The notes: generated from the letters alone by a model not told the origin. 64,000 nt of DNA from an uncultured Acidimicrobiales bacterium (GCA_963763885.1 CAVXQD010000007.1:559919-623918); one strand, 5' to 3'. Counted from the stretch's first letter, positions 1,834-50,165 are shown. Numbers and translations are program-made.

Positions 1834-4458
1834 ATGTCAGGAGCACCTTCCGGCGAGCGTGCGCCTTCACTCAGAGACCGACTCCCGCCCCCAGGGAGCG
1901 ATCCGCTGGACGTCCTCGACGGCTTTGCTGCGTGGGCACACGAGACGGGTCGTCCGCTCTACCCCCATCAGGAAGAAGCGGGTTTCGCGCTCGCTGACAA
2001 GCAGCACGTGGTTTTGGCCACGCCCACGGGGTCAGGCAAATCGATGGCAGCGCTGGCCGGGATTGTCCTTGCGATGAACGCTGGCAAGCGGGCCGTGTGG
2101 ACGGCGCCCATCAAGGCACTGGTTGCCGAGAAGTTCTTCGAACTGATCGATCTACTGGGACCGGAGAACGTTGGCCTTGCTATTGGCGATGCCTCTATCA
2201 ACCGCGATGCGCCGGTGTTGGTGTGCACGGCGGAGGTGCTGGCGAACCAAGCGCTCGGTGTGACCGGGCAGGGGTATCACAACGATGGCCACGATTCATA
2301 TGGCTTTGCGTGCCTCGATGAGTTCCACTACTACGGCGATGTCGACCGCGGCTGGGCTTGGCAGGTGCCGCTGCTGGTGATGCATGAGTGTCAGTTCTTG
2401 CTGGCCTCAGCAACGTTGGGCGATGTCAGCCCGTTGGTGGCGGATCTGGAAACCCGTACCGGTCGCCCGGTGACCCGCATCACTGGCGTGACGCGCCCCA
2501 TTCCGCTGTTCCACCAGTTCCGCACCACGCCGGTCTCAGACAGCGTGCAGGCCGCCATCGAGCAGGGCCTGTTCCCCGTGTACTTGGTGCATACCAGCCA
2601 GGCTGAAGCCGTCGAGCGGGCCAGCGCGTTGGTCAGCCTTCCCCTCACCTCGCGTCCGCAGCGGGAAGCCATTGCGGCAGCCATCAGCACGGAGCGTCTC
2701 AACACAGGTTTCGGTCAAAACTTGGGCCGCTACCTGCGCAACGGCGTCGGCGTGCACCACGCCGGCATGCTCCCCCGTTATCGGCGGTTGGTCGAACGTC
2801 TCGCGGGAGAAGGGCTACTCCCTGTCATCTGTGGCACAGACACGTTGGGCGTGGGCATCAACATTCCCATCCGAACCGTGTTGTTCAGCGCGCTTACCAA
2901 GTTCGACGGTTCAAAGGTACGCACGCTGCGGGCCAGAGAGTTTCATCAGCTGGCCGGGCGCGCGGGTCGGCCTGGGTTCGACCCAGACGGCCACGTGTGG
3001 GCGCAGGCACCCGAGCACGTCATCGACAACGAACGTGCGCTGTCACGCGCTGGCGACGATCCCAAGGCAAGACGCAAAGTCAAACGGGCCGAGGCACCAA
3101 AGGGCTTTGTCCACTGGGACGAAAAGACATTCGAACGTCTCATTGCATCTGAACCAGAGCCGCTGATCAGCCGGTTCAAGGTGACCGCCGACTTGGTGGC
3201 CTCGGTGCTTTCTCGCCCCGACGGCCCCGACGCGTTGAAGAACCTCCTCACCACCAACCACGACACCGAAACCCGTAAGCGCACACATAGACGCCGGGCA
3301 ATTCACATCTATCGCTCCCTCGAGGCGGCCGGGGTTGCGGAACGCCTTCGCGACAGCGCCGGCAAATGCGCCGGCGTTCGCATCGGGTCTCTTGTCAACG
3401 ACGGCACCGACGATGTTGAACGCGTCCGGTTCACGTCCCCACTTGGGCCGTTTGCCATTGAAGCCATCAGCACCTTCGAGCAAGACACCATCATCTACCC
3501 GCTCGATGTGATCAGCGTCATCGAGGCCATCGTCGACAACCCGATGGCCATCCTCATCGCGCAGGAGAAGCAGGCGCGGTCGCAAGAGATCGGGCGGATG
3601 AAGTCCGAGGGCATCGAGTACGAAGAACGCATGGCGCTCCTGCAGACCGTCACGTGGCCGAAACCGCTTGACGAAGAGTTGCGTGACATGTTCCTCATCT
3701 ACAAGCGCTCGCATCCATGGACAGAGACCTGGCCAGAGCCAAAGAGCATTGTGCGCGAACTGCTCGAAACGGGCGAAACGTTTGCCAACTACGTCAAGCG
3801 CTATGGCATCGAGCGCAGCGAGGGCTTGCTGCTTCGTCACCTCACCGATGTCTGGAAGGCGCTGGACAAGTCGTTGCCGTTGGACGCCTACACCGAAGAA
3901 GTGGAAGACGTCATCGATTGGTTGGCCGCGCTCATCCGATCTATCGACGCCAGCCTGCTTGAGGAATGGGAACGGCTGTCAGGCCTTGTCCCCGCGGATC
4001 GCCAGGCGCCCACGGCACCCCGCCAGGTCGATGCCGGTCCACCCAAAGCTTGGAAGACCGCGGTCCGCACAGCGGTGTTCGGCTGGGTGGAGCTGCTGGC
4101 CATCCGACGCCACGACCGCCTCGGCGACCGCACCGGCTGGAGCGTCGACACGCTCAACGAGACGATGGCGCCCTACTGGGCAGAGTACGACTCCATCGCG
4201 ACCGATGCTGATGCACGGTCGGCAAGCTTCTTCTCGCTTACGACTGGGCGCGGTCGAGCGGTGAACGGAGGGATCGGAGTTGAACCCGAGGTGGAGCAAC
4301 CCATTGAATTCGGCGAAACGGATTGGAGCATCACTCAGCGGCTGGCAGATCCCGCCGAAGACGGCGCGTGGCAGATGACCGTAGTGATGCCGGTGGCTGC
4401 TTCCATCGAGGCAGGGCAACCAATTCTGCGCCTAATCTCAATTGCACCGTTGCCCTAG
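1834..4458 (+). CDS. DExH-box (Ski2-like) helicase with DUF3516-type C-terminal region
   Basis: Motif I ATPTGSGKS, motif II LDEFHYY, motif III SAT, HHAGMLPRYRRLVE...GTDTLGVGINIP, and motif VI QLAGRAGRPG. The long C-terminal extension is typical of actinobacterial DUF3516 helicases. Start uncertain. Confidence 0.85.
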   Translation: MSGAPSGERAPSLRDRLPPPGSDPLDVLDGFAAWAHETGRPLYPHQEEAGFALADKQHVVLATPTGSGKSMAALAGIVLAMNAGKRAVWTAPIKALVAEKFFELIDLLGPENVGLAIGDASINRDAPVLVCTAEVLANQALGVTGQGYHNDGHDSYGFACLDEFHYYGDVDRGWAWQVPLLVMHECQFLLASATLGDVSPLVADLETRTGRPVTRITGVTRPIPLFHQFRTTPVSDSVQAAIEQGLFPVYLVHTSQAEAVERASALVSLPLTSRPQREAIAAAISTERLNTGFGQNLGRYLRNGVGVHHAGMLPRYRRLVERLAGEGLLPVICGTDTLGVGINIPIRTVLFSALTKFDGSKVRTLRAREFHQLAGRAGRPGFDPDGHVWAQAPEHVIDNERALSRAGDDPKARRKVKRAEAPKGFVHWDEKTFERLIASEPEPLISRFKVTADLVASVLSRPDGPDALKNLLTTNHDTETRKRTHRRRAIHIYRSLEAAGVAERLRDSAGKCAGVRIGSLVNDGTDDVERVRFTSPLGPFAIEAISTFEQDTIIYPLDVISVIEAIVDNPMAILIAQEKQARSQEIGRMKSEGIEYEERMALLQTVTWPKPLDEELRDMFLIYKRSHPWTETWPEPKSIVRELLETGETFANYVKRYGIERSEGLLLRHLTDVWKALDKSLPLDAYTEEVEDVIDWLAALIRSIDASLLEEWERLSGLVPADRQAPTAPRQVDAGPPKAWKTAVRTAVFGWVELLAIRRHDRLGDRTGWSVDTLNETMAPYWAEYDSIATDADARSASFFSLTTGRGRAVNGGIGVEPEVEQPIEFGETDWSITQRLADPAEDGAWQMTVVMPVAASIEAGQPILRLISIAPLP
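4242..4306 (+). repeat. family-A repeat copy embedded in-frame in the helicase CDS
   Basis: GACTGGGCGCGGTCGAGCGGTGAACGGAGGGATCGGAGTTGAACCCGAGGTGGAGCAACCCATT matches the 63-bp unit with a few indels. It is translated as GRGRAVNGGIGVEPEVEQPI without breaking the helicase frame. Confidence 0.85.
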
Positions 4459-4502
4459 GAGCCAACGATAGAAATTCCGGGAACATTTTGAATTGACGGT
4501 AA

Positions 4503-4522
4503 AACTTAGGTGCGCCTAAGTT
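4503..4522. promoter_or_regulatory. palindromic operator candidate (AACTTAGG-TGCG-CCTAAGTT) upstream of the hmuT-like gene
   Basis: Perfect 8-bp inverted arms with a 4-bp spacer in an AT-rich 70-bp intergenic region, ending 7 nt before the ATG at 4530. TTGAAT/TTGACG -35-like hexamers sit at 4488..4497. The TTAGG/CCTAA half-sites resemble DtxR/IdeR iron-box half-sites, but the spacing differs from the 19-bp consensus. Confidence 0.4.
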
Positions 4523-4529
4523 ACTTTAT

Positions 4530-5469
4530 ATGTTCAACCGTACTTTTCGTCTCTCCGTAGCTGCCGTGGTGTGTGCCGCCGCGGCGCTGCTCCCTCTGTC
4601 CAGGGTGGCTGCTGCCACCTCATCAACCGCACCGACTGAAGCTGCGAAGAAACCAAAGATTGGTTACGGACGCCAGCTTTCTGCTGAGGGATTGTTGGCG
4701 TTGAAGCCGACTCTGATCATCGGCAACGACGACTCGGGACCTGCCACGGTGTTAGCCCAATTGCGGTCCAGCACGGTTCCGGTTGTCATCGTCCCGGCGG
4801 GTGACGAGTGGCAGATGCAGGAAAGAAGATTCGTTGGGTTGCCCAAGCCGTTGGTCTGGCCGACTCTGGCGACGCGCTCGCAGACAAGGTCGAACGTGAC
4901 ATCGCAATTGTGCAGAAGCGGTGGGCGGCCTCCAGCAAAAGGATGGACCCGAAAGCGGTTTTCTTGTATTTGCCGGGCCCAAAAACGCAGCTACTCGGCG
5001 GAGCCGGCACCAGGGCACACGCCACGCTCAGCGCTGCCGGCGCTGTTGATGCTGGCGCCTACCTCGCCGGAGTGAGTGGATATGTTCCGATTACGTCCGA
5101 AGCGTTGGTGCGAGCAAAACCGGACACCATTGTGGTTTTGGAAAACGGCTTGGCTTCGGTCGGCGGTATCGATGGACTGCTGAAGATCCCCGGCATCGCA
5201 CTCACCCCAGCGGGCCAGAAGCGTCGCGTGTTGGCTTTCGATGATCTGAAGCTGCTTGCGTCACGGATGGAACACCCCACCACGCATTGTGCGCTGAGGC
5301 CTTGTCGGACGCCTACCGCTGCAGAGTCAGAGTCCTCGAGCACCCACTCGACGAGGGCTCCGTGCTCGTCGTTCCTGCCACCAATCACGCACAACATCAC
5401 CGACCTTCGCTACGCACCGAAGGTTGCAGCCCAACCTCACACCTCATCGCATTTGGAGAACAACAATGA
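4530..5469 (+). pseudogene. hmuT: heme/hemin ABC transporter substrate-binding protein (HmuT-like), disrupted
   Basis: A signal peptide is followed by KIGYGRQLSAEGLLALKPTLIIGNDDSGPATVLAQLRSSTVPVVIVP (ORF 4530..5075). Homology continues in another frame as KKIRWVAQAVGLADSGDALADKVERDI...ITSEALVRAKPDTIVVLENG...RRVLAFDDLKLL (ORF 4808..5596). It probably shifts again near 5255 into ORF 5287..5469. There are at least two frameshifts (~4806 and ~5255), and the first ~50 residues of the mature N-lobe appear to be missing. Confidence 0.65.
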
Positions 5470-29383: not shown

Positions 29384-30555
29384 CAGTTTGCCCCCCGTTC
29401 ACCGCTGATCTTGCGGCCCTTCCAGCTCAACTTTCCCTGCCGCGCCAACCGGTTACTGCGGATGCCAAGACCGATCAATGTCAACACCGAAGCTGGGTGG
29501 GCCAACGCATCGGCCTTGCGACCTCGGGTAGCATGCGCGCTTATTACCCTTCCCAGTACCCCCGCCAGGTATCCAAGCGCACCAGTACAAAACAGGCGTG
29601 GGCGGCGTAAGGCAATCCCTGCCAGCATTCCCGTTGCCGGAACAACGTAAGCAAGGAGAAGCAACGATCCGATTCCCCGCGACGCAGCCTTGCTTGGCAG
29701 AGCGGCCCACAGGCTCTTGGAGTAGCCGTCGCGTAGTTCATTCCAGCCGTCGTACATCCGACATGAAGCGATCGCGGAACCCTCTGCCACCACGGCACGG
29801 AATCCGTTCCGTTTGAACGAGGCTGCAAGCGCCACGTCTTCGATGACATCGCTACACACGCTTTCGTGCCCACCAACTTGGCGCCACGCCTTCGCATCGA
29901 CGGCAAGCAGTTGGCCATTGGCGGCCGCCATCGAAACAGGGTTCGGCCGTTCCGCCAACCGCAACGGCAAGAACGTCAGGAACAGCCACTGGAGCAGCGG
30001 CTGCACCAAACGTTCCGCTGCGCTCCCCATGATCTGCTTTGGATACGGCGAGACCAGGTGCAGGTTGTGGCGTTCCATCAGCGCAACCGTTGCGCGCAAC
30101 GCAGCCGGCGCAAGCACCACATCGGCGTCGATGAACACCAGCACATCACCGGCTGCGAGCCGGCCGAGTTGGTTGCACGCGAAGGGTTTCCCAAGCCAGC
30201 CGGGAGGCAGGTCTTTCCCAGTGATGACGCGCAACCGCGGGTCACCAGCCGCTGCGGCACGCACCACGTCGGAGGTTGCGTCGGTCGAATGATCGTCCAG
30301 CACAATCAGTTCAAAGCCGCCCTCGACACCATCGCATGCCAGTACTGAGGTGATGGTCGGGCCGATCCGATGCGCTTCGTTACGCGCGGGGATGAGCACA
30401 CTGATGCGTTTGTTGGCCGGGACCGCTGGGGAGTTGGGGTCGGCCCGCCGCAGCAAAACAGCGTTCAGCAGCGCGTGCGCGCTGAAGACCGAAGCGAGCA
30501 CCGAACCGGCAGCGGTGACTACAACGGCGACTGCAACCGTGTCTTCAGCGGCCAC
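29383..30555 (-). CDS. family 2 glycosyltransferase (carotenoid glycosyltransferase CruC/CrtX-like by context)
   Basis: ISVLIPARNEAHRI...LIVLDDHSTDAT...VFIDADV (GT2 DxD), with C-terminal TM segments. Start uncertain (GTG 30555 chosen; the track ORF extends to 30621). The stop shares 1 nt with the crtI-family ATG. Confidence 0.7.
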   Translation of the reverse strand: MAAEDTVAVAVVVTAAGSVLASVFSAHALLNAVLLRRADPNSPAVPANKRISVLIPARNEAHRIGPTITSVLACDGVEGGFELIVLDDHSTDATSDVVRAAAAGDPRLRVITGKDLPPGWLGKPFACNQLGRLAAGDVLVFIDADVVLAPAALRATVALMERHNLHLVSPYPKQIMGSAAERLVQPLLQWLFLTFLPLRLAERPNPVSMAAANGQLLAVDAKAWRQVGGHESVCSDVIEDVALAASFKRNGFRAVVAEGSAIASCRMYDGWNELRDGYSKSLWAALPSKAASRGIGSLLLLAYVVPATGMLAGIALRRPRLFCTGALGYLAGVLGRVISAHATRGRKADALAHPASVLTLIGLGIRSNRLARQGKLSWKGRKISGERGAN

Positions 30556-31351
30556 GGCCAGCAGACGGCATCTTTTCTCGGTCTTGTCGGCCTCTGGTAG
30601 ATCCGAGGAACGCCAACACAACCGGACTCAACGCTGCCGACATGGCGAGACCGCCGACCAACGCGCTCCCGCGAAGACCGAAGAACAACAGATGGCCGAT
30701 GAACGAAGAGGCCCAGGTCCATGCGAGGACCAACAACGGGATGCCTTCGAAATCGATGACGTGGTTCACGCCTCGATCGAACAGGAACATCATCAGCGCG
30801 CCTACAACCAGCCAGCCCAACAGGTTGGTGAGTGGCACACCGTTGATAGTTGGCCATGCGCTCTTGGCCCAGGTCCAGCGCCCGTCCTTCACCATTTGTG
30901 GATCAAGGAAAAGGTCCCACGCGGCAAGGATCGGTGCGCCAAGGAGCGGTTTTCCGATCATCCGGCCAGCCACGAACGCCGGCCATCCGAGCATCGCCCA
31001 TGCAAGCGGAACGATCACCGGCACACCAGCCAGCTTCAGCCATGTGCCCGGCGCATAGTCGTACGAACCGAATGGGAAGCCCAACCGGTCGCCCATGAAC
31101 TCAGCGACGTACCCAAGCAACACACCGGCAAGCAGCAGGGTCAAGAAAGCAAGAAACGACTCGGAGGCCGCGTGAAACGCTGCACAAGCAAAGAACGCCA
31201 GTACCGCCAGGACTGTCATCCAGACGCGTGGCCGATCATCGGTGAAGACGTAGATGATTTGGGCCAGGATGCCGAACGCAGCCGCGAAGAACGACAGTGC
31301 TCGCAAGTGGACGGGGTCGCCCATTGGTTCCATGAGATGTGGCATGAGCAA
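30545..31351 (-). CDS. cruF: carotenoid biosynthesis membrane protein, DUF422/CruF family (carotenoid 1',2'-hydratase-like)
   Basis: Polytopic membrane protein: ...GYVAEFMGDRLGFPFGSYDY...VPLAWAMLGWPAF...LAAWDLFLDPQMVKDGRWTW... matches my recollection of the Caroten_synth/CruF family. Confidence 0.6.
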   Translation of the reverse strand: MLMPHLMEPMGDPVHLRALSFFAAAFGILAQIIYVFTDDRPRVWMTVLAVLAFFACAAFHAASESFLAFLTLLLAGVLLGYVAEFMGDRLGFPFGSYDYAPGTWLKLAGVPVIVPLAWAMLGWPAFVAGRMIGKPLLGAPILAAWDLFLDPQMVKDGRWTWAKSAWPTINGVPLTNLLGWLVVGALMMFLFDRGVNHVIDFEGIPLLVLAWTWASSFIGHLLFFGLRGSALVGGLAMSAALSPVVLAFLGSTRGRQDREKMPSAGRGR

Positions 31352-31375
31352 CTCTTTCAGCGCGTACGACGCGAA

Positions 31376-32152
31376 TCAGCCGGTTCTGGGGTGAGGGAGA
31401 AGCCGCTGAATCCCTTCCATGCTGGCACCCCTGACCGTACCTGTGGCGGACTGGACCGTGAAACGGACAAACAGCTCTTCGGAATACCACCCTTGGGAGG
31501 CAGTTTTCCGCACAACTTCACGGTGAGCGTCGCGCCGATATGCGAAATTCTCAACCGCCGAAACGTCCGCCCACACCGAAAACGTTGCCTGCAGGCCGAT
31601 CGGAGCCTCCCCGATACCGATGCGGAGCAGCGAACCCGGGACCTCATGGGCGTCGGCGGCAACCGGCGGGATTGCCCGCAGGAATGTCGGCAATTTGCGA
31701 GGCCGGATCTTCGCCCTGGTGAGGACAGCTATGGGTCGACAGTCCGGATTCACCTCGCCGCCATCGTGTTTCGAGGAGTCTGCGCCGAACGGACGGGATC
31801 CCGCCCACTCTCCTTTCCAGCGAATCGGCGACAAGACGAACCGGGCTTCTTCCAGCGAACGTTTCCGCCAGCTGCGGACTACGGGATGCTCCGTGTCGAA
31901 CTGCTGGGCAGTTGCTTCGTCGCCCCAGACGGTGAACAGTCCCCATACGCCGAGATCTGCGTCTTGCGGGAGAAACGTGGTGCCGCTGCTGGTTCCAAGC
32001 ATCTTGGCGAACCGAAGCCCTGGCGCCTTCCTCAGCACCCGACGATCAGTGGCCATATGAAACAACGCGAGAGGGATGCCTGACTTGGGGACGGTGAAAA
32101 GGTGCAGCGTCGCGGTCCGGCCGTGGTCGGCCTGCTCGGTCGGTTTGGTCAC
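31376..32152 (-). CDS. spheroidene monooxygenase (CrtA)-like protein
   Basis: TLHLFTVPKSGIPLALFHMATDRRVLRKAPGLRFAKMLGTSSGTTFLPQDADLGVWGLFTVW resembles the CrtA N-terminal pattern (LsLFrF...W.f.qM...r..L....G..F.KLfGtG.G.GF.P). The GTG start overlaps the SDR stop (GTGA). Confidence 0.5.
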   Translation of the reverse strand: MTKPTEQADHGRTATLHLFTVPKSGIPLALFHMATDRRVLRKAPGLRFAKMLGTSSGTTFLPQDADLGVWGLFTVWGDEATAQQFDTEHPVVRSWRKRSLEEARFVLSPIRWKGEWAGSRPFGADSSKHDGGEVNPDCRPIAVLTRAKIRPRKLPTFLRAIPPVAADAHEVPGSLLRIGIGEAPIGLQATFSVWADVSAVENFAYRRDAHREVVRKTASQGWYSEELFVRFTVQSATGTVRGASMEGIQRLLPHPRTG

Positions 32153-32934
32153 TGTGCTGACCAGCCTCCATCGACGATGAGCGACTGTCCGGTAACAAAG
32201 GAGGAGGCATCGGAGCAGAGGAACAACAACGCCCCGTCCAGCTCGCGACCCTCGCCGTTGCGACCCATCGGCGTGCGCTGACGCAGGTACTTTTGGCCAC
32301 CGTCAGAGTCGAAGAGGTCGTCGGTCAGTTCGGTCTGGAAGAACCCCGGACACAGCGCGTTGACCCGCACGCCGCGCCGGGCCCACAGCACAGCCAGCTC
32401 ACGAGTGAGGTTCACCACCGCGCCCTTGGAAGCCGCGTAACTGGCCTGTTGCATGCGCCCCGAGCTGATGTGGCCCAGCATCGACGCCACGTTCACGACC
32501 ACTCCACTGTTCTGCAACATCCACTTGGTTGCGCAGTGCTGGGTGAGCTGAAAGAGCCCGTCGAGGTTGACCGCCATCACCTGGCGCCACGATTCGATGG
32601 GCTCGGACTCCGGTGGATGTTGATTTGCCAGGCCGGCGTTGTTGATCAGCACATCGATGCGCCCAAAACGGTCGAGCACGGTTTGTGCCAGCGACTCACA
32701 GTCCTCTGGCAGAGCGATGTCCGTGCGGATAGGGAGCGAACCTGGCAACCTGGCCGCAAGCTCATCCAGCCGGTCCATTCGCCGCGCTGCCAGAACAACC
32801 TGCGCACCCGCAGCGTGCAGGACCTCGGCGAACCGCAGCCCAAGGCCCGACGACGCTCCCGTGAGAATGACCACCTTGCCGTCCAACCGGAACATCGAAG
32901 TCGGATCTGTTTGAGTCAGGTTTTCCAAGGCCAC
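32149..32934 (-). CDS. SDR family oxidoreductase
   Basis: VVILTGASSGLG, NNAG, S...YAASKGAV (YxxxK), and VDGGW near the C-terminus. First gene of the carotenoid operon. Confidence 0.85.
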   Translation of the reverse strand: MALENLTQTDPTSMFRLDGKVVILTGASSGLGLRFAEVLHAAGAQVVLAARRMDRLDELAARLPGSLPIRTDIALPEDCESLAQTVLDRFGRIDVLINNAGLANQHPPESEPIESWRQVMAVNLDGLFQLTQHCATKWMLQNSGVVVNVASMLGHISSGRMQQASYAASKGAVVNLTRELAVLWARRGVRVNALCPGFFQTELTDDLFDSDGGQKYLRQRTPMGRNGEGRELDGALLFLCSDASSFVTGQSLIVDGGWSAQ

Positions 32935-32994
32935 GCCACCGACGCTACCGGGCGATCAGGAGCTGCACCGAACTGGAAGCTACCGTGAACGGTG

Positions 32995-33360
32995 ATGAAG
33001 CCGAACTTCGACACACCTGCCATTTTTCACAACCCAAATTGAAACTCTTCAACCAATGCCGTGAGCATTGCCGAAGAGCTTGGGGTCAGCGCCACCGTCA
33101 TCAACTACACCAAGACCCCGCCAGACGAAGCAACGCTTCGTTGGATCATCGATCATCTGGAGGACCCCATCACCAACTTGGTGCGCCGTGACGCGGTGTT
33201 CGCCAAGATGGGTCTCACCGATGCCGATGTCGCAACAGCTGATCAGATCGTCAGTGTACTTATGAAGATGCCTCGCTTGATGCAACGACCCGTTGTCGTC
33301 AAGGGATCCGTGGCGCTCATCGGCCGCCCCAAAGATCGCGTCCGAGAGTTGTTGGCATGA
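32995..33360 (+). CDS. ArsC/Spx/YffB-family thiol reductase with in-frame TGA (candidate selenocysteine) at the catalytic Cys position
   Basis: My translation from ATG 32995 reads MKPNFDTPAIFHNPN-TGA(33040..33042)-NSSTNAVSIAEELGVSATVINYTKTPPDEATLRWII...MQRPVVVKGSVALIGRPKDRVRELLA. The family signature HNPxCxxS has TGA in place of the Cys. The track only lists the truncated part 33061..33360. Confidence 0.6.
33045..33078 (+). other. SECIS-like stem-loop downstream of TGA 33040
   Basis: CTCTTC(33045-50) pairs with GAAGAG(33073-78), and CAATGC(33054-59) pairs with GCATTG(33065-70). The apical loop is CGUGA (33060-64), with an internal loop AAC/CC. The loop starts 20 nt after the U of UGA. Confidence 0.5.
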
Positions 33361-34259
33361 AGGTTCGCATCGGGTTTGGCCTGGGCACCGCTGGAATGCG
33401 TGGCGACTCGGTGCAATACGCAAGTTTTATCGACGACCTCGAACGCCTCAAGTTCGACTCTGTTTGGTTCTCCGAGCGGCTCACCGGCAACGCTCCGGAC
33501 CCCGTCGTTGCAATGGCGTTCGCCGCCGGCCGGACCCACAAACTGAAGTTCGGCATGAGCGTGATGGTCCTTCCGGGCCGTAACCCGGTTCTGGTGGCGA
33601 AGGAACTCGCATCGCTTGACGTTCTCTCGGGCGGCAGGCTGCTTCCGGCGTTCGGCCTTGGCGTTGCAGATCCAAAGGAACAGGCAGCCTTCGCGGTGAA
33701 GCGTGAAGATCGGGCGCCGATGTTCAACGAATCCCTTGCGCTCATCCGCCGCCTGTGGACCGAAGACAACGTCAGCCACGAGGGACGGTTCTTCTCCTTC
33801 GACAGCGTCACGGTTCGGCCCAAACCCAAGCAGTCCCCTCCAGAAGTGTGGCTGGGCGGTTTCGCACCGTCTGAACTTCGGCGGGTCGGCCGCCTTGCAG
33901 ATGGCTGGTTACCTAGTTTCATCACCCCGGCTGAATCCGGGGCGCTTGCAGACCAAGTCCGTTTCGCAGCTGAAGAGGCAGGCCGAGAGATCGACCCAGA
34001 GCATTTCGGTGTGCTCATCCCCTACGCGTCAAGCGGGGAGTTGATGGGTCCACTCATCGAACGGTTCAAGGCCCGCCGACCCGACATCACCGATGCCTCA
34101 GCATTGTTCCCGGTCGGCGTGGAAGCGATACGCGCGCAGATCAACGGCTTCATCGAGCACGGGTACTCAAAGTTTGTGCTCATTCCCGCCGTGGAACCGG
34201 CCAACTTCACCGAAGAACTTGAGATGTTGGCGCAGGAAGTTCTGACCCTCGAAAACTGA
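33357..34259 (+). CDS. LLM-class F420-dependent oxidoreductase
   Basis: MKVRIGFGLG..., FDSVWFSERL, VLPGRNPVLVAKELASLDVLSGGRLLPAFGLG. The ATG overlaps the upstream stop (ATGA). Confidence 0.75.
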   Translation: MKVRIGFGLGTAGMRGDSVQYASFIDDLERLKFDSVWFSERLTGNAPDPVVAMAFAAGRTHKLKFGMSVMVLPGRNPVLVAKELASLDVLSGGRLLPAFGLGVADPKEQAAFAVKREDRAPMFNESLALIRRLWTEDNVSHEGRFFSFDSVTVRPKPKQSPPEVWLGGFAPSELRRVGRLADGWLPSFITPAESGALADQVRFAAEEAGREIDPEHFGVLIPYASSGELMGPLIERFKARRPDITDASALFPVGVEAIRAQINGFIEHGYSKFVLIPAVEPANFTEELEMLAQEVLTLEN

Positions 34260-34305: not shown

Positions 34306-36201
34306 CTACCAGGAGCCGCCGCCACCGCCGCCCGAGGACCCGCCACCGCCAAAGCTGCCGCCACCGAATCCACCAGAGCTGTTGGAAGACCGTGCGGCGG
34401 CCTGCCGTGCGGCCTCGGCTGCTGCACCGGCTGCGATGGATTGGTTCAGCGAACGGTCGAAACTGTCAAGCGCTCCTTGCAGGGAACTGCCGCCCCGCCC
34501 CCAGCCCATCGGGTAGAAGCCAGGTCCGTAACCGCCCATTGGCCCGAAATACGGAACGGTGGGTTGCACGCCCATCTTCTCGAACGTCTTCACCCATTTG
34601 TCCACGTTGCCGAACACCATGGCGTACGGCAGATATTCGGCAAACAGGTTCTGCTTCTCCGCAAGTTTCAGCCGATCCCCTTCGCCCGCATCGAACAGCA
34701 GCTCAAACCCGCGGAGACGAGCCTCGACGCGGCTGCCTGTTGCAGTGCGCACCGGCATCGTCTGAGCGGCCGCAAGCAGACCCAACCCAAACACCGCTAG
34801 CGCGATTCCAACAAGTCCGAACCGCGACGCACCTGCAAGAAAGAACGTCAGTGCACCGCCGGCGACCAGCGACACCAGGCCAGCGGCCCGCCAACGCGCC
34901 CGCACGTGCACCGGATTTGCAACCCACCAGCCCTTTTCCACTGCCTCGTTCAGCAGGAGGCCGCGCACGCTTGCCATCTGTGACGCGAGCTGGGTTCGGC
35001 CCGACAGGTTTTCCAGGGTGACCGTGTTGGATCCGTCAGAGAACAGCACGTTGAGCAAGTTCTGTTCATTGGCGGTGATCTGCTGGGACGTTTTCACCGG
35101 CTGCTTGCCCGTCAGTACCAGTTGGTAGTCCTTCCCGTTGTCGCCCAGCGGCTCGATCTGCAGCACGCCACGAGCCGCAAGGTCAACCACCGTTGCGCTG
35201 ATGCATTGCTGCGAAGATTCGCCAGAGCGAGCCGGTTCAACTAGTCCGGGACGAATACCTTCGGGTGGCTCAAACTCCACCGGCGAAGCAATACGTTCAC
35301 GTAGCTTTCGGGGCCGCTCCTGATCGCCCGGCGTTCCCAACGATCCGCCGCTGGCGAACACCCGGTCACGTCCCTTCCGGCCGGTGACAAACGCTCCAGC
35401 AACCGCACCGATGAGTGCAAGAGCACCGACTGCGCCGGGAGCGCCGGAAGTTGTGAAACCGTCAGCGATGGTGTGGGGAGTCTCCAATAGCGGTTCTCGA
35501 TACGCAATGCTGCTGTCGACCGGAACTTCCACCTCGATGCCGATGCCGCTGGTACGAACCGCAACACCGTTGGCCGTTGGGGTGACTTCACAGTTCGCAG
35601 ACGAGTCACCCCGGAGGCAAACCGGGATGCCCTTCGCTCGGACTGGAACCTTGATATCAATTGAGACTTCGTCCACCGGAACGGTCCAGCCTTCGCCGAC
35701 CGCCACGAATTGCAGCAGCCCATCGACAACAGCACGTTCGATGCGGTAGCTGATCTCATAGACATGGCGACCTGTGACGAAGATCTGAGGATTGCCAATC
35801 CGCAGGACGGAGACGTTTCCCTCGGTTGAGATGTTGGTGGAAGTAGGTGCCCCGGTGGGTGAGGTGACGCGAAGCCAGTCAACCTTGGTCACACGAGTCC
35901 ATGAGCGACCTGAATCCGGCACCTTCACCAGGTCGTTGTCCACGACGAATCGGTCGGGGACGTACCGAAAGATGCCCCGTTTGGAGTTGGCGCCGAAGTT
36001 CCAGACGATGCGCTCGCTGACAAGCAGGTCACCGTTGGGCTGCACTTCAGCAAGGACGGTGAGTTGCTCCAGCCGTTCTTCGAACGAGGTTTGCGCCAAG
36101 GGCTGGGCGGAGACTGTTCCAGAACCTGCCCCGAACGTGAGGAACAAGACCACACAGGCCAAGGCACCTCGAAGCAAAACGGACAGACTTAATGGGCGCA
36201 C
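34306..36201 (-). CDS. DUF2207 domain membrane protein with Gly-rich C-terminus
   Basis: Signal/TM, a large extracytoplasmic domain and 3 TM segments. YLPYAMVFGNVDKWVKTFEKMG is typical of DUF2207. The tail is GGFGGGSFGGGGSSGGGGGGSW. Confidence 0.65.
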   Translation of the reverse strand: MRPLSLSVLLRGALACVVLFLTFGAGSGTVSAQPLAQTSFEERLEQLTVLAEVQPNGDLLVSERIVWNFGANSKRGIFRYVPDRFVVDNDLVKVPDSGRSWTRVTKVDWLRVTSPTGAPTSTNISTEGNVSVLRIGNPQIFVTGRHVYEISYRIERAVVDGLLQFVAVGEGWTVPVDEVSIDIKVPVRAKGIPVCLRGDSSANCEVTPTANGVAVRTSGIGIEVEVPVDSSIAYREPLLETPHTIADGFTTSGAPGAVGALALIGAVAGAFVTGRKGRDRVFASGGSLGTPGDQERPRKLRERIASPVEFEPPEGIRPGLVEPARSGESSQQCISATVVDLAARGVLQIEPLGDNGKDYQLVLTGKQPVKTSQQITANEQNLLNVLFSDGSNTVTLENLSGRTQLASQMASVRGLLLNEAVEKGWWVANPVHVRARWRAAGLVSLVAGGALTFFLAGASRFGLVGIALAVFGLGLLAAAQTMPVRTATGSRVEARLRGFELLFDAGEGDRLKLAEKQNLFAEYLPYAMVFGNVDKWVKTFEKMGVQPTVPYFGPMGGYGPGFYPMGWGRGGSSLQGALDSFDRSLNQSIAAGAAAEAARQAAARSSNSSGGFGGGSFGGGGSSGGGGGGSW

Positions 36202-49067: not shown

Positions 49068-50165
49068 TTACCAGGGAGCCGGAGGGTAGTACTTGGATAG
49101 CCCGCCGACGGCGACCACGTCGTCCAACCAGTTCCCATCGTATGGGCCCGTATCTTCTTGCATCAGGTCCCGCGGCGAGCCGTCTGCTGTGGTGACCAAC
49201 GACCAAGCCTGTCGCTTTGCGGCCCAGTTGTCTGGGTCCAGTTGGTGCGTAGCTCGCCAGCATTCAACCATCGCGTCGGTGTTGCCCATTTGTCGAAAAT
49301 GGTCGCCCAGCTCAAACGCGGCGGCGGCCTGAGACTGTGATTCCGTGAGGCCGGGCTGCTCCCCTGCTGGCACTTCGCCAGTCTGCACCCAACGCCGAAG
49401 CGCCGTTAGGTAAGCCTGGTGGCGATCTTCGCCTGCCTTCATCAGCTCGAATCGGGCAAGCACCCGCGGCGGTAGTCCGTCAGGGATTGGCCGGTCGCCC
49501 CAACCTGGCGTCACCGCCGATTGATGCGCTGCCAGCGCCACGGTTCCGTCGGCATTCACCCAAAGGGCCATTGGAACGTTGCGAAAGTTCAACGCGCCCA
49601 CGGTGCTATGCGCGCTGTCGATCAACGACAAACCAGCAGCTGCAAGCTCCGGTGCCTTGTCCATGTACGGGTGGCAGAAGGCGGCATCAACTTCGATCCC
49701 GATTGCAACCACGTCAACGTCGTGAGCCTGAAATTCCTGATGCATTTCCTGCCACACGGGCAGGTATTCACGGCAGCCTCACCACGGTGCCCATGCGTGA
49801 AGCACCATTCGCCGCTTGCGCGCCACAAGCGAGGCGAGTGTCACCGGGTTGCCGCTGCGGTCAGTCAGGGTGACCTCAGGAAGCGGAGCCCCGGTCAGCC
49901 CCAATGCCGACTCACCGTGCTCTGGACCAACGCTCACAACATCACCAGAGCGATAAGTGGCACGACTGGTAGCCGACGCCAATTGCTCGGTATCGAAACG
50001 GCCCTGGGCATCACGAGTCAGACCGGAAACCGGAATGCAACGGTCTCCGCTGCACCACCCCGAATCCTCCAGATGCCAGCCGGTCCCGCTTGTCCATTCG
50101 TCTGCAGAGACAGTCGTTGCAGTGATCATCCAGGGAGCTTGGCGCACGTGGGCCACGTGGACCAA
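49068..50165 (-). CDS. ResA/TlpA-like thiol-disulfide oxidoreductase with W-A-x-x-U-G-C motif (in-frame TGA, candidate selenoprotein) plus C-terminal helical domain
   Basis: Track ORFs 49779..50165 and 49068..49757 are in the same frame, separated only by TGA (49781..49779) and 7 codons: ...PLPEVTLTDRSGNPVTLASLVARKRRMVLHAWAPW-TGA-GCREYLPVWQEMHQEFQAHDVDVVAIG... This is the redoxin layout FWAxWCxxCRxExP with TGA at the first Cys. Start is TTG 50165 or ATG 50129. Confidence 0.6.
49748..49764 (-). other. SECIS-like hairpin downstream of TGA 49781..49779
   Basis: On the minus strand, CCUGCC-CGUGU-GGCAGG: a perfect 6-bp stem with a 5-nt loop starting 23 nt after the U of UGA and G at loop position 2. 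Same loop type (CGUGN) as the hairpin at 33045..33078. Confidence 0.5.

Follow-up and report, generated by a model that had tools for sequence, protein, structure and literature searches.

A very probable ArsC-family selenoprotein behind a shortened gene model in an uncultured Acidimicrobiales bacterium

The genome of an uncultured Acidimicrobiales bacterium very probably encodes an ArsC-family selenoprotein of 121 residues. Its gene occupies positions 32995..33360 (plus strand) of the window, i.e. the complete stretch of 64,000 nucleotides that was analysed, and contains an internal UGA codon that appears to be recoded by means of a SECIS element located downstream of it, while the short open reading frame with a GTG start that is found at this place would be an artefact. 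A preliminary description had proposed that an ArsC-family selenoprotein gene had been missed here. This proposal is supported by more than 100 loci with TGA at the same position, by the presence of Cys at this position in other homologues, and by a constraint on the downstream hairpin that is specific for the Sec forms.

Gene model and distribution of Sec and Cys forms

The Sec-containing coding sequence starts with ATG 32995 and comprises 121 codons plus the stop. An in-frame stop codon (32986-32988) lies before it, and GTG 32992 is available as an alternative start codon. By translation, the frame reads MKPNFDTPAIFHNPN-TGA(33040-33042)-NSSTNAVSIAEELGV... and ends at TGA 33358-33360. The internal TGA (33040..33042, plus strand), the only one inside this frame, corresponds to codon 16 and, when read as selenocysteine, generates the motif HNPN-U-NSS (UxxS) with U at the position of Cys12 in R773 ArsC; the peptide spanning it is AIFHNPN-U-NSSTNAVSIAEELGVSATVINYTK. 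Both the translation and the alignment of homologues confirm the initial observation that the frame from ATG 32995 carries TGA at the catalytic Cys position. The translated protein contains no Cys at all.

The mechanical ORF list contains 33061..33360 alone, as had been noticed before, i.e. a 99-residue ORF with a GTG start. This GTG (33061..33063, plus strand), chosen by ORF and gene callers, is a false start codon and resides inside the apical loop of the SECIS element (C-GUG-A). The annotated 99-residue ORF is a gene-calling artefact, in which the gene has been shortened because the selenocysteine UGA was taken as a stop. The best 120 homologues fall into two length classes: proteins of 117-122 aa, which read I(F/Y)HNPNCNSS.NAV.IAEELGV, and proteins of 99-103 aa, which start with V/M-(S/R)-IAEELG after the TGA. 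About 40 of these 120 are such short calls beginning at the same V/M, and the short calls of this family are a systematic mis-annotation across NCBI, JGI and ENA records. Database entries that start at a GTG or ATG within the SECIS loop include P0001-P0011 and others, which are named 'arsenate reductase (glutaredoxin)'.

For a comparison across relatives, DNA was fetched for 80 GTDB species representatives and 80 metagenome contigs, and the codon at the Cys position was read. TGA was present in 102 fetched loci (103 sequences with the window) and TGC or TGT in 45; a pattern scan added four more TGA loci. Homologues thus span this codon with either TGA or a Cys codon. The TGA loci belong to Acidimicrobiia and to Gammaproteobacteria of the Pseudomonadales ('Azotimanducaceae'). 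Within Acidimicrobiia, orthologues are common in organisms from varied habitats, with Sec forms predominating.

The sequence upstream of the TGA is preserved as well. The segment (I/V/L)(F/Y)HNPx is kept in frame 5' of the TGA in all TGA loci. In the Sec forms of the window's clade, the amino acids of codons -7 to -2 are retained, with two to four synonymous codons in use for each. Because the amino acids are conserved while the synonymous codons vary, the stretch 5' of the TGA is translated.

Family assignment, gene neighbourhood and substrate

With U replaced by C, the window protein matches PF03960 (ArsC; COG1393) over residues 11-118 (E = 1.1e-12; 48.6 bits, cut-off 24), which bears out the family assignment made at first sight. 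A phmmer search against the PDB identified the ArsC arsenate reductases 3rdw, 2mu0, 3f0i and 1i9d/1j9b as the closest solved structures; these chains align with residues 9-120 and place their catalytic Cys opposite the TGA. The alignment with full-length Cys homologues covers the entire window protein. The family alignment shows no variation at R64/R65, R98 and R111. In the window protein, these conserved Arg residues are found in LVRRD, QRP and GRP, opposite the Arg residues of the LMR, ERP and GRP motifs in 3rdw and 3f0i; in 2mu0, the counterparts are LLR-AKE for the first conserved Arg, and NRP and CRP for the second and third. We take these residues to be the equivalents of Arg60, Arg94 and Arg107 of R773 ArsC. 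The protein does not fit the RNA-polymerase-binding regulators of the Spx/MgsR type: it has UxxS instead of their N-terminal CxxC redox switch, contains no Cys and stays below the cut-offs of both TIGR01617 (44.9 vs 75.05 bits) and NF002459 (26.8 vs 123).

Because the translated protein has no Cys, Sec is predicted to be its sole redox residue, like the nucleophile of the single-Cys, glutaredoxin-coupled ArsC proteins. Sec would then stand in for the single catalytic Cys, giving UxxS for CxxS, and the selenolate would attack arsenate or a similar oxyanion. Regeneration could be achieved by an external low-molecular-weight thiol together with a glutaredoxin- or mycoredoxin-type partner. As judged from the sequence, arsenate reduction by a selenolate that is recycled via an external thiol system is the best guess for the function of this protein.

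The gene is followed on the same strand by a gene for an LLM-class F420-dependent oxidoreductase (33357..34259; PF00296, 6.3e-49), which scores 277 bits against TIGR03854, below the cut-off of 295.6. Its ATG overlaps the arsC stop codon as ATGA, and the preliminary description had taken this translational coupling as a sign of a redox pair. The neighbourhoods of related loci were compared via called-gene tables; clustering of stop-to-stop ORFs had been swamped by spurious overlapping ORFs. An LLM orthologue adjoins arsC in the closest relatives (L001, L002, L162 and L166), with a gap of 14 nt in L162 (78% ArsC identity) and of 60 nt in L166 (83%). In L003 and L004 the orthologue is 1-1.3 kb away; the L003 copy is about 1 kb further downstream, and the L004 copy comes directly next, on the opposite strand. 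L163 (68% ArsC identity) and the Cys forms have other, unrelated neighbours in place of the LLM gene, and relatives do not keep the ATGA overlap. Thus, the overlap exists as described; the proposed redox pair is weak, since the two genes adjoin in close relatives only and the overlap is not retained. The adjacency of ArsC and LLM fits inherited synteny, and the case for a functional pair is at best weak.

An LLM-like gene is also found in Gammaproteobacterial loci (L028, L037, L040, L054, L059 and L068), about 0.6-1.3 kb downstream of arsC and in convergent orientation. It is only about 27-29% identical to the window LLM, and the loci are mostly of the Sec form, L028 being a Cys form. This distant LLM-like gene may be there by coincidence or may faintly reflect an association of ArsC with LLM.

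The immediate neighbours of arsC in the window are genes for an SDR, a DUF3291 protein, a carotenoid-synthesis protein, the LLM protein and a DUF2207 protein. Upstream of arsC, a divergent block on the minus strand contains the SDR gene (32149-32934), a DUF3291-like ORF (31376-32152) and a gene for a carotenoid biosynthesis protein (30545-31351; PF04240). This block (30545-32934) is conserved in L162 (1-4406) and L166 (1-4890), and in relatives it is continued by a glycosyltransferase gene and an amino-oxidase/phytoene-desaturase-like gene, so that it looks like a carotenoid (glycoside) gene cluster. L162 contains in addition a rhodanese-domain gene (4408-4806, minus strand) between the SDR gene and arsC, which is absent from the window; among proteins with the rhodanese fold there are arsenate reductases as well as known selenoprotein families. 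Downstream, a gene for a DUF2207 membrane protein of 631 aa with a Gly/Ser-rich C-terminus (34306-36201, minus strand) is convergent with the LLM gene, and its position is conserved in L162.

It is quite possible, if doubtful, that the gene encodes a genuine selenoprotein whose physiological substrate is not arsenate but another oxyanion, a thiol or a selenenylsulfide, maybe with a link to the LLM protein in the window's genus. The score against the arsC equivalog TIGR00014 (88.0 bits with U replaced by C) is below the cut-off of 106.05, and neither arsR nor arsB/ACR3-type nor arsA genes accompany arsC, be it in the window or at the nine related loci for which gene calls were available. The very wide distribution of orthologues in Acidimicrobiia, mostly as Sec forms, resembles that of a housekeeping gene more than that of an accessory resistance gene, and in the nearest relatives the LLM gene lies next to arsC. 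Furthermore, a 2026 review describes the functions of such selenoproteins as largely uncharacterised. On the other hand, the active-site residues of Grx-coupled arsenate reductases are present (the nucleophile position, R64/65, R98 and R111) and the best PDB matches are arsenate reductases, while a link to LLM is weakened by the loss of adjacency in L163 and in Cys forms and by the unconserved ATGA overlap. The more far-reaching idea that the Sec-ArsC of Acidimicrobiia is a housekeeping selenoenzyme with another substrate, perhaps recycled by or working with the F420-dependent LLM protein, is improbable; room for it is left by the lack of ars genes nearby, by a TIGR00014 score under the cut-off and by the fact that Sec forms predominate in diverse habitats. 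If it were true, Sec-ArsC and LLM would represent a selenium/F420 redox couple without described precedent.

The downstream hairpin and decoding of the UGA codon

The proposed SECIS-type stem-loop extends from 33045 to 33078 (plus strand), as deduced from the RNAfold MFE structure and from comparative data. Its lower stem, CUCUUC/GAAGAG, is formed by 33045-33050 and 33073-33078, and its upper stem, CAAUGC/GCAUUG, by 33054-33059 and 33065-33070. The apical loop CGUGA (33060-33064) starts 20 nt after the U of UGA, within the range of 16-37 nt published for bacterial SECIS elements. The two stems, the loop and the 20-nt distance thus agree with the geometry given in the preliminary description; the start of the hairpin had been set 5 nt after the TGA and needs correction, because it lies 2 nt after the codon, i.e. 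5 nt after its U.

When the single sequence is considered, the hairpin is no better than chance: with an MFE of -13.3 kcal/mol it reaches z = -0.62, and an equally good or better fold is obtained for 52 of 200 shuffled sequences. Because this fold is not exceptional, the significance of the hairpin has to come from comparative data. Among 53 distinct Sec sequences of the window's clade, pairing is seen in 99.4% of the cells of the upper stem, which never varies. For the lower stem this value is 69.5%, and two of its pairs show changes on both sides. The support from covariation is weak, and the upper stem cannot show any because it does not vary.

A clearer signal is present at synonymous sites, which were evaluated for 21 of the 53 distinct Sec sequences, namely the complete ones of equal length. 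In these, zero synonymous entropy is seen at codons +5 to +9 (AAT GCC GTG NGC ATT), as compared with an average of 1.07 bits for 53 other conserved codons. Elsewhere in the same genes, Asn is encoded by AAC and Ile by ATC in 85-95% of cases, as opposed to AAT and ATT in the hairpin. The third-position U's of AAU and AUU pair with A's of the opposite codon in the upper stem. In the Cys-form orthologues, the same amino acids are encoded by AAC and ATC, which breaks the stem, and there is no hairpin. For example, the Cys form L167 encodes the peptide CNSSTNAVRIAEELG by TGC AAC TCC TCG ACC AAC GCC GTG CGC ATC GCC. The Ile codon is ATT in 52 of 53 Sec forms and ATC in all eight Cys forms (Fisher p = 3e-9, uncorrected for phylogeny). 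These data support the view that the upper stem and loop are constrained at synonymous sites in the Sec forms only.

In other Sec subclades this site is occupied by hairpins of different sequence, whose loops begin at +20 to +22; GCGGCAC-UGGAC-GUGCUGC and GCGCG...CGCGC are two such hairpins from distant subclades. The Cys forms show scattered structures and no recurrent hairpin. Relative to synonymous recoding, the MFE z-score is -0.79 for Sec and 0.00 for Cys forms (Mann-Whitney p = 0.006), and a perfect stem of at least 6 bp occurs in 28 of 35 Sec and 16 of 32 Cys forms after dereplication. Rfam detected no SECIS family in the whole window at gathering thresholds, and in 32980-33140, at E up to 10, it gave chance matches to snoRNAs only and no SECIS. 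Bacterial SECIS elements are poorly modelled in Rfam.

A different perfect hairpin, GACGUCGAGUUCGACGUC, is located approximately +42 to +60 after the Sec/Cys codon in L009, L015-L018, L022-L031, L034, L053 and other loci. It is encoded by the peptide DVEFDV, occurs in Sec and Cys forms alike and is absent from the window gene. Because GAC GUC is self-complementary, this hairpin probably arises by chance from the coding sequence; MFE values of 60-nt segments are inflated by it.

By analogy with bacterial Sec decoding, the UGA at 33040-33042 would not act as a stop, but would be recoded as selenocysteine by SelB with Sec-tRNA(Sec). SelB would be recruited by the mRNA hairpin at 33045-33078, the conserved upper stem and the CGUGA loop being the likely SelB-binding part. 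A search of the window for TGA followed by a stem with a CGUGN loop yielded three matches, with about 1.2 expected, and over all loci this pattern retrieved only further ArsC copies and a peroxiredoxin-like (Prx-like) gene. A GC3-based scan of the window for genes with in-frame TGA missed both candidates and is uninformative at 61% GC.

The Prx-like gene, an AhpC/TSA candidate at 49068..50129 (minus strand; start codon uncertain), probably encodes a second selenoprotein, as suggested by its translated motif WAPW-U-G-C. Matches to PF00578 and PF08534 extend across its in-frame TGA (49781-49779), and the ORF track splits the gene, listing 49068..49757 as a separate 229-aa ORF. The hairpin CCUGCC-CGUGU-GGCAGG (49764-49748, minus strand) has a 6-bp stem and a loop that starts 23 nt after the U. 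A second gene with the same arrangement of TGA and CGUGU loop had already been pointed out; this part stands, with the correction that the gene is on the minus strand with its TGA at 49781-49779. An in-frame TGA combined with the same type of loop in this second gene provides indirect support for Sec decoding in the organism. The gene matches the family 'Prx-like (UGC-containing), pfam00578' of the GOS analysis.

Sec machinery has been reported from the same class: according to a 2026 preprint, selA/B/C/D are present in all 84 complete genomes of the Actinomarinales, a sister order. In the 64-kb window and about 1.8 Mb of related flanks, selA, selB, selD and tRNA-Sec were not found. ARAGORN predicted no tRNA gene in the 64-kb window and no tRNA-Sec in the first 60 genome-collection loci (L002-L061), and SelD and SelA probes based on the E. 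coli sequences gave no tblastn match in the window or the related flanks.

It is very improbable that the TGA is a true stop, making the locus a pseudogene or the real product a 99-residue protein that starts at GTG 33061. Standard gene callers do give the short model in many genomes, and TGA is the only stop codon that is one substitution away from a Cys codon. However, more than 100 loci from two phyla keep the TGA together with an intact, conserved upstream peptide that shows synonymous variation, and the shortened product would start too late to include the first strand of the fold and its catalytic residue. In addition, the GTG sits in the loop of a synonymously constrained hairpin that is absent from Cys forms. 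Both the pseudogene and the GTG-start reading were rejected on the basis of the conserved and translated peptide 5' of the TGA.

Read-through of the UGA without Sec machinery, by near-cognate insertion of Trp or Cys or by a lineage-wide reassignment, is hardly credible and was rejected on comparative evidence: low-level UGA read-through does occur in bacteria, but UGA is the ordinary stop of the window arsC (33358-33360), an in-frame UGA occupies the redox Cys position in two unrelated genes of the window, the constrained hairpin follows the codon in TGA forms only, and Sec machinery is reported for the Actinomarinales of the same class.

Relation to known selenoproteins and arsenate reductases

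Selenoproteins of this kind have been known for some time. The Sargasso Sea study of Zhang, Fomenko & Gladyshev (2005) introduced 'Arsenate reductase' as a new selenoprotein family with a UxxS motif, based on 14 sequences, for one of which a SECIS element was predicted. The GOS selenoproteome of 2008 lists 77 sequences as 'ArsC 1, pfam03960, UxxS', and the 2026 review includes arsenate reductase (TIGR00014, UxxS) among the prokaryotic selenoproteins, whose functions it regards as largely uncharacterised. Because 'Arsenate reductase, UxxS' has been published since 2005, the window gene is a further member of a known selenoprotein family and not a new kind of selenoprotein. It shares with this family the Pfam domain, U at the position of the catalytic Cys and the existence of widespread Cys homologues, and its stem-loop, with a small G-containing apical loop right after the UGA, agrees with the published criterion. 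There is no categorical difference between the two; the window copy is from an Acidimicrobiia MAG and its database entry is 99 aa long.

The main value of the finding lies in annotation, as dozens of orthologues are stored as 99-aa fragments without the active site. With corrected gene models, these Acidimicrobiia are recognisable as users of selenium, and so are some marine Gammaproteobacteria. The synonymous-site evidence for the SECIS element is an extra support and not a new feature. Paired Sec and Cys orthologues differ at only two synonymous stem positions, and they constitute a natural experiment on SelB-SECIS recognition in this lineage.

With R773 and E. coli ArsC (1i9d, 1j9b) as well as 3rdw, 3f0i and 2mu0, the window protein shares the fold family and the HNPxCxxS-type loop. 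Like the R773-type enzymes, it has a single nucleophile without a resolving Cys, and the conserved Arg residues. It differs from them by the replacement of Cys with Sec, by its length of about 120 residues, by the sub-cut-off score against TIGR00014 and by the lack of an ars operon. The E. coli fdhF element, the paradigm of bacterial SECIS, is likewise a hairpin within the coding sequence just after the UGA, with a small loop in which G is followed by U, and the bacterial SECIS consensus applied in the Sargasso and GOS studies has these features too. The sequence of the window hairpin is unrelated to fdhF and consists of a clade-specific core, AAUGC-CGUGN-GCAUU, for which there is no Rfam model. 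Finally, the 'Arsenate reductase 2' or arsenate reductase-like proteins (cd03032; NF041106) and Spx/MgsR have the same ArsC/Spx superfamily fold as the window protein, but they contain UxxC or CxxC, whereas the window protein contains UxxS and no Cys.
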